NCBI GenBank assembly: GCA_020724425.1
Contig: DYGY01000008.1
Coordinates: 4,151-68,150, forward strand
Direction of reading: 5' to 3'
Length of the DNA stretch: 64,000 nucleotides
From: Thermaerobacter marianensis
GTDB taxonomy: Bacteria > Bacillota > Sulfobacillia > DVGY01
Position numbers and translations under genes: made by a program. The notes under the pieces are model-generated. The model was not told where the DNA came from, searched no databases, and was given only the letters and a program-made list of their open reading frames with translations. Below are positions 4,381 through 8,801 of the stretch, piece after piece (position 1 is the stretch's first letter; every line of letters begins with the position of its first letter).

Positions 4381-4578
4381 TCAAGATATCTCCGGTTTGG
4401 GTAGAAGATAAAGTAGGGCCCCAGTGAGTAGCATTACCAGCCCCATGACATTGATAATTTGCTCTACTAATTGGGACTTATCGGTGAGGAGAGAGGCAAC
4501 AATCTTAAGGATTATTAGCGTAAGAATTGTTAGTCCTACAATGCGATGAGTAATTCTTGTTATCTTTGATAGATTCAT
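4381..4578 (-). CDS. Small two-TM hypothetical protein (65 aa)
   Basis: RBS AAAGGGGTG before ATG at 4578; two hydrophobic segments. Confidence 0.6.
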   Translation of the reverse strand: MNLSKITRITHRIVGLTILTLIILKIVASLLTDKSQLVEQIINVMGLVMLLTGALLYLLPKPEIS

Positions 4579-4938
4579 AGTGTTCACCCCTTTGACTTCT
4601 AAGTGTATACTTCTATGATTAGAATGCAAGGGGTGTCTGTAAAAATCGGTCTGAAGCCCTAGATTAGAATAGTACGCTTGTGGCAGGGGTATAAGCTCAG
4701 GAAGAGTTAGATGTTAGTATTCTAACTATTACATAGGACTACATGGTATTAGACAGGCATAAGTATATTGTTGAGAGTTATTCCAATTTAACTTTAGTTA
4801 AATATATTTTCAAGAAAATTATCAGCGAATTTTTTTCTGGTTGATGTAAATGTAATTACGAGCCTAGAAATATGTGATAACTTTCATAGTAGAGGGACTT
4901 CTTTGCTAGTTGAAAAAACCTATGTGGAGGTGTTATTT

Positions 4939-4962
4939 GTGCCACCAGGCTTGGAAGGTTGA
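4939..4962 (+). CDS. Putative leader peptide MPPGLEG (uORF, copy 1)
   Basis: RBS GGAGGTG then GTG CCA CCA GGC TTG GAA GGT TGA; paralogous uORF at 6585-6608. Confidence 0.55.
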   Translation: MPPGLEG

Positions 4963-5011
4963 CTTGAGGCCTTGGGGTTTTATTTAAACTAGGTAAAGGG
5001 GGATTTAGAGC

Positions 5012-5740
5012 ATGGCAAAGGATGCTACTGCTTATGTCAGAGGGTTAATTGTGGTTCTGATGGCTACGGTAGCTGTATTCAGTATCATGGGAGGCGTTGG
5101 TACTGTATGTGTGGCTTGGAGTGCAGCGAGCTGGCCTCCATTTAGAGCTCTAGCCGAATATTCAGCTTTTTATAAGGCTACGGTATTCATTAATTTAGGT
5201 GTTGGTTTTGCTGCTGCAATTATCACTTATGCTTTTATTCGGGCTGAGAAGTGGGCTTATAAGGCTGCTATCTGGACTCTAGCGATTGGTGCGGGCTCTG
5301 GTCTAATCAAGATGTATGTCTCTAATATGTTAAGAGGGGCTACTTCTCCGACTGAAGTCAGGGTCTATGTTACTATCGCGGTTTTAGTTATCATGTTGAT
5401 AATTCGCTTGCCATTTATCTGGAACAAGATTGATCTTACTCGTTCCGATGGCAAATCAGGTTCCTATGGTATTCCTACAGGGATGGCATGTATGGCTGCT
5501 GGATTAGGTTTATTGGGTACGCCGTATATTGCAGGTCCTTCTCACACCTATGATGGTGTTAATTATGTCAATTATCTGTTGCCAGAGCTATATATCATTG
5601 GTGGTATATTCTTAGGTGTTGGTGTAGGTCTATTAACGTTAGTGAAGCTTGGAGTTAATATTGATGGCTGGGTAGCTAATCTTGGTAAGAGTCTGTATAA
5701 ATGGCTTGTACCGTCAGCCAGGGCAGAGGAGGTCAAATAA
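5012..5740 (+). CDS. Multi-TM membrane protein of unknown function (cassette gene A, copy 1)
   Basis: About 6 hydrophobic segments; motifs GVGTVCxAW, WPPFRA, IPTGMAC, GPSHTxDGVNYVNYL shared with 6654-7388. Confidence 0.9.
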   Translation: MAKDATAYVRGLIVVLMATVAVFSIMGGVGTVCVAWSAASWPPFRALAEYSAFYKATVFINLGVGFAAAIITYAFIRAEKWAYKAAIWTLAIGAGSGLIKMYVSNMLRGATSPTEVRVYVTIAVLVIMLIIRLPFIWNKIDLTRSDGKSGSYGIPTGMACMAAGLGLLGTPYIAGPSHTYDGVNYVNYLLPELYIIGGIFLGVGVGLLTLVKLGVNIDGWVANLGKSLYKWLVPSARAEEVK

Positions 5741-6394
5741 ATGGCTTTCCTAAAATATATGGATAGTATGTCGATTGCGATGGCGTTTGTTTTGCTAATT
5801 CTGATGTTTAATAGAATCAGTAGGCCGGGGAAAATGCAGCATTCCTTATGGTTTGCCGGGGCAGTTGCCTTAGCTACTGTTGTATTATTGGGAACTAGAG
5901 ATGTGGCTTTGGCGGTTAATTCTCATTATACTGCTATGGCGTTAATGGCTGTGGTTTTGATGGCATCTGGTTTTACAGCTGTTGCTGACAAAGAAGGTAA
6001 GTGGTCACCGTATTTCTCTTTGACCTTGGTGTTAGCTGCACTGGTATATGCTTTGATAAGTCATTACCGGGAATCTGTTACGGGTCAGGTTCTTGCAGAT
6101 CCAGTATTCTTAGTTGTGGCAGGTATTGCTCTTCTTATCTTGGTGTTGGTACCTGCATGGTTGTTCTTTACCGGTAAAGCGAACTATCATGCACTGGCAA
6201 TTTCGGTTGGCTGGATACTCGTTACTGTTGCTAGTTGGTACCAGTGGTCGGCAGCTACTGAAAGGATTGTTATGGAGGCCGATGCCTTAAGTTCTACTGT
6301 TTTCACCATATTGTTTATTGGTATGGTTTCGATTATTGCGGGGTTCTCTTTAACGGGATGGTTAGATGATGATAAGCAATCTGTAAGTGGTTAG
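5741..6394 (+). CDS. Multi-TM membrane protein of unknown function (cassette gene B, copy 1)
   Basis: Abuts gene A; KMQHxLWFAG, DKEGK, WYQWSAATER shared with 7389-8033. Confidence 0.9.
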   Translation: MAFLKYMDSMSIAMAFVLLILMFNRISRPGKMQHSLWFAGAVALATVVLLGTRDVALAVNSHYTAMALMAVVLMASGFTAVADKEGKWSPYFSLTLVLAALVYALISHYRESVTGQVLADPVFLVVAGIALLILVLVPAWLFFTGKANYHALAISVGWILVTVASWYQWSAATERIVMEADALSSTVFTILFIGMVSIIAGFSLTGWLDDDKQSVSG

Positions 6395-6406
6395 AGTAAG
6401 ATTAGG

Positions 6407-6441
6407 AAATAAGAGGAGCCGAAATATGGCTCCTCTTATTT
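6407..6441 (+). terminator. Stem-loop terminator after cassette copy 1
   Basis: Perfect 14-bp inverted repeat AAATAAGAGGAGCC/GGCTCCTCTTATTT. Confidence 0.8.
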
Positions 6442-6584
6442 GTCTTTGGTTCAATTGGGTGTCATATTGATAGTGTTTTTCATTAATAGATAATTGTGTA
6501 AGCGCAATTACTTAGCTGGTAGTGTATGATAATTTCGATAGTAGAAAGACTTCTTTTCTAATAGCCTTGTTGGAGGTGTTGACA

Positions 6585-6608
6585 ATGCCACCAGGATCAC
6601 AGGGTTGA
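6585..6608 (+). CDS. Putative leader peptide MPPGSQG (uORF, copy 2)
   Basis: RBS GGAGGTG then ATG CCA CCA GGA TCA CAG GGT TGA; same length and stop as copy 1. Confidence 0.55.
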   Translation: MPPGSQG

Positions 6609-6653
6609 TGTTGTGGCGTTGATGAAAACTACGAAAAGGAGGATTTAAAGCGC

Positions 6654-7388
6654 ATGAAAAAGGATATGACTGCCTATGTTAGGGGTATAATCGTGATCAC
6701 CATGGCTATGGTTGCGGTTTTTAGTATCCTAGCAGGTGTAGGTACAGTCTGTATTGCTTGGGGAGCAGCTAACTGGCCACCATTCCGGGCTTTTGTTCCG
6801 TATCAAGGTATTTATCAAACCATTACGATTATTACCTTGATGGTTGGTTTTGCAGCAACTGTTATTGCTTATGCGTTTGTTCGTGGCGAAAAGTGGGCTT
6901 TTAATGCAGCCATTGTAGCTATTCTCATTGGTCTTGTTTCCGGTGGAGTTCATATGTACTATTCTGATATGATTAGAGGCAGTACTACTCCGGCGAATCT
7001 ACGCGTTTATGTTGATATTATTGCACTTGTGGTCTTGTTTATTATCAGGATGCCGTTTGTCTGGAATAAGATTGATCTGACTAAGCCTTTAGGCAAGAAT
7101 GGTTCCTACACTATTCCTACGGGAATGGCTTGTGTGGCAGCAGGACTTGGTATGCTTTCCACTCCATTCTATGCTGGTCCTTCCCATACTTTTGATGGTG
7201 TTAACTATGTAAATTATCTGATGACTGAGTTGCTGGTTATTGGTGGAGTGTTGGTTGGCTTTGGAGCTATTCTCTTGGTCTTGGCTAAGATGAAAGTTCC
7301 GGTTGATCAATGGGTTGTTTCTTTGTTTAAGAGGGCAGCTGGTTTGTTTGGTTTTTCCTTTAAAGCTAAAGCAGAGGAGGGCAAATAG
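6654..7388 (+). CDS. Multi-TM membrane protein of unknown function (cassette gene A, copy 2)
   Basis: Paralog of 5012-5740 over its full length. Confidence 0.9.
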   Translation: MKKDMTAYVRGIIVITMAMVAVFSILAGVGTVCIAWGAANWPPFRAFVPYQGIYQTITIITLMVGFAATVIAYAFVRGEKWAFNAAIVAILIGLVSGGVHMYYSDMIRGSTTPANLRVYVDIIALVVLFIIRMPFVWNKIDLTKPLGKNGSYTIPTGMACVAAGLGMLSTPFYAGPSHTFDGVNYVNYLMTELLVIGGVLVGFGAILLVLAKMKVPVDQWVVSLFKRAAGLFGFSFKAKAEEGK

Positions 7389-8033
7389 ATGGCATTCCTA
7401 CAGTATATGGATAGTTTGTCTATTGGTGTTGCTTTAGTCCTGATGATTGTTACTTTGTGGCGTATAACTCAGGTTAACAAGATGCAGCATACTCTTTGGT
7501 TTGCAGGCTCTGTTTCCTTGATGTTTGTTGTAGCGGTTAGTACTAGAGATGTGTCCTTAGCAGTTAACCCTTATATTCAGGGAATTATTGCTTTTAGCCT
7601 AGGCTTATTAGCAGCAGGGTATTTAACTGCATTGGATAAAGAAGGGAAATATGCTCAATATTTCACTATCTATATCTTAACAGCAGCACTGGTGTTTTCG
7701 ATGGCAATGCATTATGTGGGCTCAGTGACTGGTGATGTACTTGGTACACCATTGTTTCTTTTATCCATTGGTTTGAGTCTTGTGGTTCTTGTTCTAGCTC
7801 CGCTGGCAATGATGTCAGCTGCAGGATTTCATGCTATCTGGGCAGCAGTTGGTTGGGTTTTAATTACTATTGCTGGATGGTATCAATGGTCCGCGGCGAC
7901 AGAAAGATTAGTTTTGGAAGGGGATTCTCTAAGTTCAATTGTATTTACTTTGTTAACAATTGGTTTAATCTTGATATTAGTATCTTTTGCAAATACCAAG
8001 TGGCTTGCTGAAGATGCTGATATGGCAGCGTAA
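7389..8033 (+). CDS. Multi-TM membrane protein of unknown function (cassette gene B, copy 2)
   Basis: Paralog of 5741-6394 over its full length. Confidence 0.9.
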   Translation: MAFLQYMDSLSIGVALVLMIVTLWRITQVNKMQHTLWFAGSVSLMFVVAVSTRDVSLAVNPYIQGIIAFSLGLLAAGYLTALDKEGKYAQYFTIYILTAALVFSMAMHYVGSVTGDVLGTPLFLLSIGLSLVVLVLAPLAMMSAAGFHAIWAAVGWVLITIAGWYQWSAATERLVLEGDSLSSIVFTLLTIGLILILVSFANTKWLAEDADMAA

Positions 8034-8042
8034 GAGTTATTT

Positions 8043-8069
8043 GGGAGCCATTTCTGGCTCCTTTTTTTT
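8043..8069 (+). terminator. Rho-independent terminator after cassette copy 2
   Basis: GGAGCCA-TTTC-TGGCTCC followed by T8; same GGAGCC/GGCTCC core as the copy 1 terminator. Confidence 0.85.
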
Positions 8070-8070
8070 A

Positions 8071-8098
8071 TTGACTCTGATAATTTATGTGGTATAAT
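8071..8098 (+). promoter_or_regulatory. Sigma-A promoter of tRNA-Leu(GAG)
   Basis: TTGACT-N16-TATAAT with an extended TG motif. Confidence 0.7.
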
Positions 8099-8120: not shown

Positions 8121-8205
8121 GCGAGAGTGCTGGAACTGGCAGACAGGCACGTTTGAGGGGCGTGTGGCAACAGCCGTGCGGGTTCAAGTCCCGCCTCTCG
8201 CACCA
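8121..8205 (+). tRNA. tRNA-Leu (anticodon GAG), CCA encoded
   Basis: Acceptor GCGAGAG/CTCTCGC, anticodon stem CACGT/GCGTG with loop TTGAGGG, variable arm, T arm GCGGG-TTCAAGT-CCCGC, ACCA end. Confidence 0.96.
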
Positions 8206-8282
8206 GGGAAATCCGGGGTTATACCTGGATTTTTTTATTTTAAATTACATATGTTTTAAAAACCGAAAGGGAGGGTTTACCG

Positions 8283-8801
8283 ATGATTCAAAGGTGGGAA
8301 CTAGTTGGTGTTTTTGTTATTTTCCTTGTCGGTTCTGCTTATCACTTTGTTTATGACTGGTTAGGAGGTTGGGTGGTTTTAGCTGCTATTGCTCCAGTGA
8401 ATGAGAGTGTTTGGGAGCATTTGAAGATGGCTATCTGGCCTGCAATCTTTTATGCTTTAGTGGAGTATAGGGTGGTTCTTAATCGGGTGAAGGGTTTTTG
8501 GATGGCTAAGCTGGTTAGTATTTGTATGATTCCTGTTGTTATTGTGGTCTTGTTCTATCTTTATACAGGAATTGTTGGTCATCATGTTCTTTATGTGGAT
8601 ATCTTTATTTTCTTTGTGGCTATTGCAATTGGTCAGTATCTTAGTTATAGATTGATTGTGGGGGAGTTGTTTGAAGATAGATTAAATAATCTGGGTATAA
8701 TAGGTTTGGTTTTTGTTGTTGGTGTTTTTGCGGTGTGGACATTCATACCACCGGAGTTACCTGTTTTTTTGGACCCTACTACTGGGGGTTATGGCAGATA
8801 G
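8283..8801 (+). CDS. DUF6512-like membrane protein
   Basis: HFVYDW and PVNESVWEHLK motifs, multiple TM helices. Confidence 0.75.
   Translation: MIQRWELVGVFVIFLVGSAYHFVYDWLGGWVVLAAIAPVNESVWEHLKMAIWPAIFYALVEYRVVLNRVKGFWMAKLVSICMIPVVIVVLFYLYTGIVGHHVLYVDIFIFFVAIAIGQYLSYRLIVGELFEDRLNNLGIIGLVFVVGVFAVWTFIPPELPVFLDPTTGGYGR

Follow-up and report, generated by a model that had tools for sequence, protein, structure and literature searches.

What role, if any, does a seven-codon open reading frame (ORF) play ahead of each of two tandem membrane-protein gene cassettes in Thermaerobacter marianensis? The cassettes, A1+B1 followed by A2+B2, are two transcription units of like make in the 64,000-nucleotide (nt) stretch analyzed here (contig DYGY01000008.1, positions 4,151 to 68,150; called the window below, with all coordinates counted from its first letter and referring to its + strand unless marked otherwise). 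In the leader of each cassette a mini-ORF beginning Met-Pro-Pro-Gly follows a strong upstream Shine-Dalgarno (SD) sequence, SD1. From the elements of these leaders, their conservation and the hairpins that they can form, we infer that the mini-ORF may be translated and regulatory, with ribosome occupancy controlling the hairpin that encloses it. This is the reading that we favor, and we hold it to be quite possible, if somewhat short of probable. The Pro-Pro-Gly (PPG) motif would then be a lineage-specific pause that may affect expression of the genes downstream. All of the evidence comes from the sequences of uncultured organisms.

We examined both leaders for the ordered elements that an earlier note on this DNA had described, and each was found in its place with the letters reported. 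SD1 reads GGAGGTG and lies at 4926-4932 in leader 1, 8 nt from the mini-ORF start and 81 nt from the A1 start, and at 6572-6578 in leader 2, again 8 nt from the mini-ORF start and 77 nt from the A2 start. It sits within TGGAGGTGTT (4925-4934 and 6571-6580), which is followed by five variable bases and then the start codon, and its GGAGG ends 8 nt before that codon. Mini-ORF 1 (4939-4962) reads GTG CCA CCA GGC TTG GAA GGT TGA and encodes MPPGLEG, and mini-ORF 2 (6585-6608) reads ATG CCA CCA GGA TCA CAG GGT TGA and encodes MPPGSQG; both peptides and the strong ribosome-binding site ahead of them were confirmed. The plan common to the two is a start codon, CCA CCA GGN, two unrelated codons, GGT and TGA, with consecutive proline codons at positions 2-3. 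The seven codons lie 49 and 45 nt ahead of the main start in copies 1 and 2, respectively. The main SD sequences are AAGGGGG at 4996-5002, 9 nt before the A1 start codon (ATG 5012; mean unpaired probability 0.34), and AAGGAGG at 6636-6642, 11 nt before that of A2 (ATG 6654). The initiation site of the mini-ORF was better than that of the main genes, as it combines a perfect 7-nt SD with a spacing of 8 nt, compared with 9 and 11 nt.

The predicted promoter of cassette 1 (4856-4883) was recognized from its sequence and from the alignment with copy 2. It has TTACGA as the -35 element, a 16-nt spacer with TG and TAACTT as the -10 element, and would place the RNA 5' end of leader 1 near 4886-4891; a consensus promoter scan did not list it. 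The predicted promoter of cassette 2 (6508-6535), aligned with that of cassette 1, has TTACTT, a 16-nt spacer with TG and TAATTT, and the aligned promoters conserve TGATAAYTT and TTAC. A better consensus promoter (6467-6494; TTGATA-16-GATAAT, 10/12) was noted about 40 nt upstream of the aligned cassette 2 promoter, and because of this stronger match leader 2 may have two 5' ends.

Aligned from the predicted 5' end to the main start, the two leaders were identical in 83 of 129 columns. The conserved blocks are, from the 5' end, ATAGTAGA-RR-GACTTCTTT-N-CTA; CCT...TGGAGGTGTT; TGCCACCAGG; GGTTGA; and, around the main SD, AAACTA.G.AAAGG.GGATTTA.AGC. Codon identity at identical residues was 0.49 between A1 and A2 and 0.43 between B1 and B2, and the leaders have been kept far more than the silent sites of the genes.

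The A family is rare, with 15 clusters among 5.8 billion proteins. We collected homologous loci (L numbers) from species genomes (4), from metagenomes (51) and from 210 genomes of the class (5; 7 matched, the window's own included), and denoted the A1 and A2 copies of the window W1 and W2. A maximum-likelihood tree of 36 rows was built from 33 of the 55 loci and the three full-length copies of this genome; the other 22 were left out as duplicate or partial. The tree contained a low-GC clade with support of 100/99, within which W1 grouped with L009/L014 and L010/L012 (96/96) and W2 fell outside that group. Eight of the 10 copies in this clade (W1, W2, L009, L014, L010, L012, the first copy of L011, and L016) had a strong upstream SD 67-84 nt ahead of the main start, the distances being 81, 77, 84, 75, 76, 76, 75 and 67 nt. 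This SD lay 32-60 nt from the predicted 5' ends. The two copies that lack it, a third paralog of this genome on contig C33 and the second tandem copy of L011, both have short leaders. Outside the clade, GGAGG at -95 to -60 was found in 0 of 27 loci, and an SD-like word at -65 to -90 in 0 of 5 genomes of the same class.

A start codon followed SD1 by 5-8 nt in 6 of the 8 leaders, and ATG and GTG were interchanged between W1 and W2 and between L010 and L012. The nearest relatives (45-53% identity) share the whole layout of promoter, leader of about 130-165 nt, GGAGGTG[GT]T, start codon 6 nt further on, short ORF and main gene. The encoded peptides are MPKGR in L010, MPRG in L012, MPIKTKCTLVNGIESN (beginning MPIKTKC...) in L009, which is the same as L013, and MLDKGFS in L014. 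Pro-2 is common to 5 of the 6 ORFs and Gly-4 to 4 of 6, and MPxG is still present in L010 and L012; the ORFs of L009 and L012, which are paralogs in one assembly, share Met-Pro only. The sister leaders L009 and L014 are identical over TGGAGGTGGTAAATGC, after which the ORFs diverge wholly in length and sequence, and we conclude from this pair that the conserved feature is the ribosome-loading site and not the peptide. The earlier note had named a lack of ORF conservation in other genomes as grounds for refutation; across the low-GC clade the SD and start codon were retained at the same distance, and the peptide was not.

Could the elements have arisen by chance, as a functionless SD-like word and short frame carried along in the cassette duplication? 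Short frames after any start codon are to be expected in AT-rich leaders, and the genome holds 36 GGAGG-led ORFs of at most 20 codons ahead of long ORFs. Consecutive prolines, however, occurred in these two only. The motif GGAGGTGTT-N4-6-TGCCACCAGG had two matches in the 2.08-Mb genome, both in these leaders, against none in the reversed control, and neither blastn nor nhmmer found a third leader copy in the genome; the leader search matched L010 and L012 weakly (E 0.13-0.24) at the expected place. Of the genes preceded by 130 nt or more of non-coding DNA, 646 in all, 21 had GGAGG at -95 to -60 and 5 had it together with a start codon 5-8 nt on; two of the five were these leaders. The retention of the element at a fixed distance in four lineages, set against this background of 5/646, and the 83/129 identical columns in leaders whose genes are nearly saturated at synonymous sites make chance a very improbable explanation.

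We then considered how the leaders would fold. The strongest local hairpin of each leader encloses the mini-ORF, and the conserved start-Pro-Pro-Gly stretch forms its 5' arm. In leader 1 this hairpin (4941-4978) had an energy of -15.6 kcal/mol (z -1.5; 16 of 200 shuffles as good) and was followed by UUUAUUU at 4979-4985. That of leader 2 (6583-6621; arms 5' AAUGCCACC... and 3' ...GUGGCGUU) reached -17.9 kcal/mol (z -3.2; 1 of 200 shuffles as good). Hence the second hairpin of the earlier note, with the ORF as its 5' arm, is real in both copies; the 3' arms differ in sequence and pair in different registers. The first hairpin that had been proposed, in the 5' block, held in copy 1, where nine base pairs (UAGUAGAGG / UCUUUGCUA, 4887-4908) gave -7.6 kcal/mol with a z of -2.4, but it was weak in copy 2 (UAGAAAG / UUUUCUA, 6542-6560; -3.3 kcal/mol, z -0.1) and in a different register. 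The ORF hairpin of leader 1 together with its U tract looks like an intrinsic terminator or attenuator that ends 32 nt before the A1 start. A simple terminator scan missed it because the stem has bulges. Weaker hairpin-plus-U sites in L014, L010 and L012 end at -32 to -34, matching copy 1, and the mini-ORFs of L010 and L014 lie in hairpins too.

A second set of pairings connects the 5' block with the main ribosome-binding site. The pyrimidine half of the block in leader 1, CUUCUUUGC, is complementary to the main SD (GUAAAGGGG) and to A1 codons 2-4 (GCAAAGGA), and the pairing appeared in both the minimum free energy (MFE) and the consensus folds. In leader 2 the corresponding CUUCUUUUC is complementary to the main SD GAAAAGGAG and pairs with it in the MFE structure; 6545-6558 and 6633-6646 form an inverted repeat, and the A2 main SD had an unpaired probability of 0.00. 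The pyrimidine half thus resembles an anti-SD sequence. When the region 4400-7000 was scanned with Rfam 15 at E values up to 10, six matches were returned, all with E of at least 0.95 and with 16-21 bits against gathering thresholds of 36-90, and none fell on the conserved leader blocks; no Rfam family explains the region.

In the mechanism that we propose, each cassette would be transcribed with a leader of about 125 nt that bears a translated mini-ORF behind a near-perfect SD. The selected feature would be ribosome loading at SD1, inherited across the low-GC clade, with the peptide free to change. Because the mini-ORF lies in the 5' arm of the hairpin, the hairpin has to open for any ribosome that starts, pauses or stops on the ORF. 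Given the U tract behind the hairpin in copy 1, such a ribosome would there keep transcription from ending early: a ribosome at Pro-3 would cover the 5' arm and one at the stop codon the 3' arm, and read-through would be allowed. In copy 2, and in transcripts of copy 1 that have read through, the 5' pyrimidine block would mask the main ribosome-binding site, and in these cases a ribosome on the ORF would influence folding or how long the mRNA lasts. Met-Pro-Pro-Gly should lengthen the stay of the ribosome two codons after the start, for a time tied to elongation factor P (EF-P) and to the supply of Pro- and Gly-tRNA.

A number of results weigh against this proposal, and several of them bear on other explanations. 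The case for coding is the first to be affected. Synonymous sites of the mini-ORFs were identical at 4 of 5 positions, which is not significant against the 0.43-0.49 of the A1/A2 and B1/B2 pairs. In addition, the ATG/GTG change, CCA-CCA and GGT-T are explicable as base pairs (SD1 with the start and CCACCA; CCU with GGUU), and since the same letters can be read in this way, codon conservation is not proof of coding. The one contig from an RNA library, which spans 6555-6769, bridges mini-ORF 2 and A2 and is unable to prove a transcript. Near-identical strains (four public runs, low-depth contigs) had no differences within either mini-ORF, an agreement that is uninformative at about 2% divergence, and neither uncovered stretches nor the small shares of two of the runs count as evidence.

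These base pairs belong to an explanation by RNA alone, in which nested helices close the main ribosome-binding site until temperature or a factor in trans opens it (CsrA on the GGA repeats and a small RNA are candidates), and in which the ORF is an accident of a hairpin between SD-like and anti-SD-like strands. The consensus fold of the two leaders, with 27 pairs, turns the conserved blocks into helix strands and the variable stretches into loops or linkers. Its outer, long-range helix joins the 5' block to the main SD, and all 12 pairs of this helix are kept in both copies, with one double and three one-sided changes; further in, the fold pairs CCU with GGUU and SD1 with the start and CCACCA. 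The closed main SD of copy 2 and its inverted repeat argue for the same explanation, the U-rich masking helix with its G·U pairs resembles RNA thermometers, the genome carries a CsrA gene, and AGGA/GGA recurs in SD1, in the main SD and in codons 3-4. On the other hand, the inner helices have little stability (SD1 with CCACCA gave -3.7 and -5.9 kcal/mol, which did not beat shuffled sequences) and compete with the much stronger ORF hairpins, and the consensus, at -16.2 kcal/mol, falls well short of what the leaders reach individually (-34 to -42). The consensus is drawn from two sequences, which leaves covariation almost no power. A strain variant carrying 6545 A>G and 6553 C>A (one contig, depth 3.7) fits the local 5' hairpin, with the first change giving a G·U pair and the second falling on a loop base, and the 6553 change breaks one pair of the long-range helix, on which our own proposal for copy 2 also draws. 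Furthermore, the relatives keep the SD and the start codon and not the partner strands, and no Rfam family was matched. We regard masking by RNA alone as doubtful.

Results of folding also count against the preferred reading. Compared with shuffled sequences, the whole-leader fold was not clearly better in copy 1 (z -1.2) and moderately so in copy 2 (z -2.5), and leader 2 had no U tract 3' of the ORF hairpin and no terminator-like site in the scans. When the stretch from SD1 to the ORF was forced to be single-stranded, the main initiation region remained equally paired in 8 of 8 leaders, and no simple switch is predicted. The attenuator that had been proposed for this locus is partly supported: the conserved structured leader and the ORF in the 5' arm of a hairpin stood, while the terminator-like hairpin was confined to copy 1 and the modeled ribosome freed the main site in none of the eight leaders. 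Finally, in L011 and L016 AAGGAGG stands as far from the main start as it does in the others, with a start codon 11 nt (L011) or 1 nt (L016, ATG-TAG) away, and since this codon is not well placed, the SD may act without an ORF on that branch.

The lack of a predicted switch and the SD of L011 and L016 are what one would expect if SD1 were a constitutive stabilizer or standby site, at which a bound 30S subunit or ribosome guards the mRNA from decay or feeds the weaker, partly masked main site. The ORF would only let the ribosome clear, PPG would only lengthen its hold, and nothing would be sensed. The STAB-SD of cry3A and the aprE leader are 5' mRNA stabilizers of Bacillota. With these and with hbs the present leaders have in common a strong SD near the (here predicted) 5' end, far upstream of the start of the gene itself and behind a 5' hairpin. 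The SD and its distance are conserved and the peptide is not, SD1 lies 32-60 nt from the predicted ends behind the 5'-terminal hairpin, and on hbs mRNA ribosomes at a strong SD block a 5' exonuclease (excerpts of PMC5737220). In contrast to such stabilizers, 6 of the 8 leaders here have a start codon and short ORF behind the SD and MPPG is kept in two old paralogs, neither of which a bare stabilizer needs; the terminator-like hairpin of copy 1 and the masked main SD point to control and not to simple enhancement. Moreover, RNase J, the exonuclease that such elements block in Bacillota, had no match to PF17770 or TIGR00649 in the genome, an absence that is unproven because the assembly is 92.35% complete. 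We consider a constitutive stabilizer unlikely, on a par with masking by RNA alone. The lack of RNase J, if real, would be unusual for the phylum Bacillota. YacP (Rae1; PF05991), a candidate nuclease at stalled ribosomes, was not found in the genome either.

The peptide raises the question of what PPG itself contributes. A start codon followed by CCN-CCN-GGN was present within 400 nt upstream at none of 53 homologous loci, and a looser pattern of SD, start and CCN-CCN-GG was matched at 6 of 74 loci, all of them cut from this contig, and at none of the 68 others; these counts also go against the preferred reading. They also bear on the full proposal of the earlier note, drawn from the known behavior of PPG as an EF-P-dependent stalling triplet: a dedicated attenuator that would read EF-P activity or the supply of prolyl-tRNA from ribosomes held at Pro-Pro-Gly. 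Both old paralogs carry PPG, the genome has an EF-P gene, and the terminator-like hairpin of copy 1 would have its 5' arm covered by a ribosome that stalls at codon 3. Back-translation of P0002, a relative 97% identical to A2 that was called with a 17-residue N-terminal extension, implies that Gly-7 is retained through a synonymous codon change and that codon 6 is not the same; the back-translation allows the stop codon but does not fix it. A precedent exists in mgtP and mgtL of Salmonella, where proline codons let EF-P control transcription of the genes downstream (excerpts of PMC6460261). Against such a sensor, PPG is missing from all 53 loci, the paralogous ORFs of L009 and L012 share Met-Pro only, copy 2 has no terminator, and the pause may be brief given that EF-P is present. 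A dedicated sensor agrees with copy 1 but falls short on the conservation that the earlier note itself had asked for, and we find it improbable. Its fullest form, in which both leaders read Pro-Pro-Gly bond-making (EF-P activity or the charging of Pro- and Gly-tRNA) by way of a minimal fMet-Pro-Pro-Gly, with antitermination as the output of copy 1 and leader folding or mRNA life as that of copy 2, and so switch on two paralogous membrane complexes, has in our judgment a small chance of being right.

Nor did we find a wider class to which the mini-ORFs could belong. A scan of 400 other genomes of the phylum for an SD followed by MPPG gave 19 matches in 17 genomes, compared with 7 in the reversed control. 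Nine of the 19 were ORFs of at least 30 codons; of the 10 short ones, 9 lay inside long open frames on the same strand and 1 was unclear. No intergenic MPPG mini-ORF class was found in these 400 genomes, and the mini-ORFs described here are not part of one, which again disfavors a dedicated sensor. In the tree, W2 falls outside the group of W1 with L009/L014 and L010/L012, which indicates that MPPG has been kept in two old paralogs. Since Pro-2 is found in 5 of 6 ORFs and Gly-4 in 4 of 6, MPPG may be near the ancestral state, kept in the two old paralogs of this lineage; alternatively, it arose or was copied within this genome.

The reading of a translated regulatory mini-ORF can be compared with known leaders. 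In erm and cat leaders a ribosome that stalls in the leader ORF releases the segment that masks the SD. They share with the present leaders an ORF with a better initiation site than that of the gene and a gene SD masked by pairing, but the strand that masks the SD here is 5' of the ORF, and nothing is freed when the ORF is blocked. The closest architecture is that of vmlR and of the tiny-ORF attenuators of Bacillota such as lmo0919, with which our leaders share an SD just before a hairpin that holds a very short ORF of variable peptide. In vmlR of Bacillus subtilis, as the excerpts of PMC9226507 describe it, an SD precedes a hairpin holding a 3-codon ORF whose peptide varies between species (MIN, MDN, MDK, MRK), a terminator hairpin follows further downstream, along with a structure that masks the SD, and ribosome occupancy of the ORF decides the folding. 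Unlike vmlR, the genes here encode a membrane-protein pair of unknown function and not an ABCF resistance factor, there is no known antibiotic link, and the ORF has seven codons with PPG. The terminator-like hairpin is found in copy 1 only, where it is the ORF hairpin itself, and no antiterminator alternative was found.

The leaders of mgtCBR (mgtP) and mgtA (mgtL) likewise place an ORF with proline codons ahead of a membrane-transporter gene, and loss of EF-P alters stalling and hence the level of downstream mRNA (excerpts of PMC6460261 and PMC5021804). Those leaders are long, belong to Proteobacteria, respond to several signals, have conserved proline codons and have been tested genetically, whereas here Pro-Pro is found in one lineage, in a minimal ORF known from sequence alone. 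The defining feature of the mgtP/mgtL kind, conserved proline codons, is lacking, as PPG was seen at 0 of 53 homologous loci. The logic proposed for copy 1 is that of pyrL and mgtP, in which ribosome occupancy during transcription permits read-through (excerpts of PMC5021804 and PMC6460261); in pyrL, ribosome coupling across the leader prevents its terminator (excerpts of PMC5021804). What appears to be new relative to known leader ORFs is the gene family that they precede, the PPG start and an ORF hairpin that itself carries a U tract in one copy only. A search of the open-access literature (PubMed Central and bioRxiv) found no MPPG leader ORF; among the matches listed, fMPPG and fMet-Pro-Pro-Gly were absent and MPPG was another acronym.

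Antibiotic-resistance, amino-acid and Mg2+-transport genes offer well-known cases of short leader ORFs that register the state of the ribosome. To our knowledge, few natural leader ORFs use an EF-P-dependent motif, and the described ones are from Salmonella. If the MPPG mini-ORF tunes these operons, it would be a minimal and easily testable Gram-positive example, and it would begin to show under what conditions the cell needs a widespread, unnamed pair of membrane proteins. If the sensor reading were true, these leaders would provide the first case outside Proteobacteria of a natural leader ORF that responds to EF-P, in an uncultured lineage of spore-forming Bacillota. The comparison of the relatives, in which the loading site is conserved while the peptide drifts, helps to tell leaders that depend on an initiation site from those that depend on a specific peptide.

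The genes that follow the leaders encode polytopic membrane proteins. Cassette 1 consists of A1 (5012-5740, 242 aa) and B1 (5741-6394, 217 aa), and cassette 2 of A2 (6654-7388, 244 aa) and B2 (7389-8033, 214 aa), which is followed by a terminator at 8043-8062. An intrinsic terminator with a perfect 14-bp stem (6407-6441), 3' of cassette 1, parts the two transcription units. Protein identity between the copies was 59% for A1/A2 and 50% for B1/B2. A Pfam scan of A1, B1, A2 and B2 matched no family, and in the protein atlas both A and B fall into unnamed clusters. The atlas model of B (5741-6394 and 7389-8033) aligned with the 7TM part of 7TMR-DISM receptors (TM 0.64-0.67 by query), which is a structural lead only, and the unnamed look-alike clusters of A and B are mostly from Chloroflexota. 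The flanking genes are typical of spore-forming Bacillota and include polA, fpg, coaE, an SLT transglycosylase, CotJB, a Mn-catalase-like CotJC and a chemoreceptor. The genome assembly comprises 45 contigs, and the comparison genomes are related to it at class level only.

The A gene is present in four copies in the window's genome, the two additional ones being on contigs C33 (6823-7452, - strand) and C15 (54784-55335, - strand), listed as loci L007 and L008. The third copy (C33) has a leader of about 45 nt without an upstream SD, and no B gene was detected 3' of it. The fourth (C15) has its 5' end cut off, as the match starts at residue 35, and adjoins unrelated sequence. A tandem arrangement was also seen in L011 (2031-5365, from an assembly labeled Vulcanibacillus), where the order is B, A, B, terminator, A and the upstream SD stands before the first A only; tandem duplication of the cassette is thus not peculiar to this genome.

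Further features were noted around the cassettes. On the 3' side of cassette 2, a strong promoter (8071-8098; 11/12, with TG) and a terminator-like hairpin (8205-8236) precede a gene for a DUF6512 membrane protein (8283-8801) and may be another leader. The 380-nt intergenic region 5' of cassette 1 (4630-4880) contains a perfect palindrome, ATTTAACT-TT-AGTTAAAT, at 4786-4803 and an inverted repeat, TTAGAATAGTA / TAGTATTCTAA, at 4664-4674 / 4715-4725. In L009, L010, L012 and L014 an operator-like palindrome, TTTGCC-N4-GGCAAA, was found about 40-60 nt upstream of the -10 element, at the -35 region, and it is extended to AGATTTGCC...GGCAAATCT in L010 and L012. This palindrome is absent before the cassettes of the window, which share TGTAA-N6-TTAC there. 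The same-class, higher-GC loci L067, L068 and L069, and also L066 and L070, are without an upstream SD or ORF and share CAGGTCAATG about 85-95 nt before the A start; this motif is followed further on by ACCTGG...CCAGGTG and may represent a different conserved leader or an operator.

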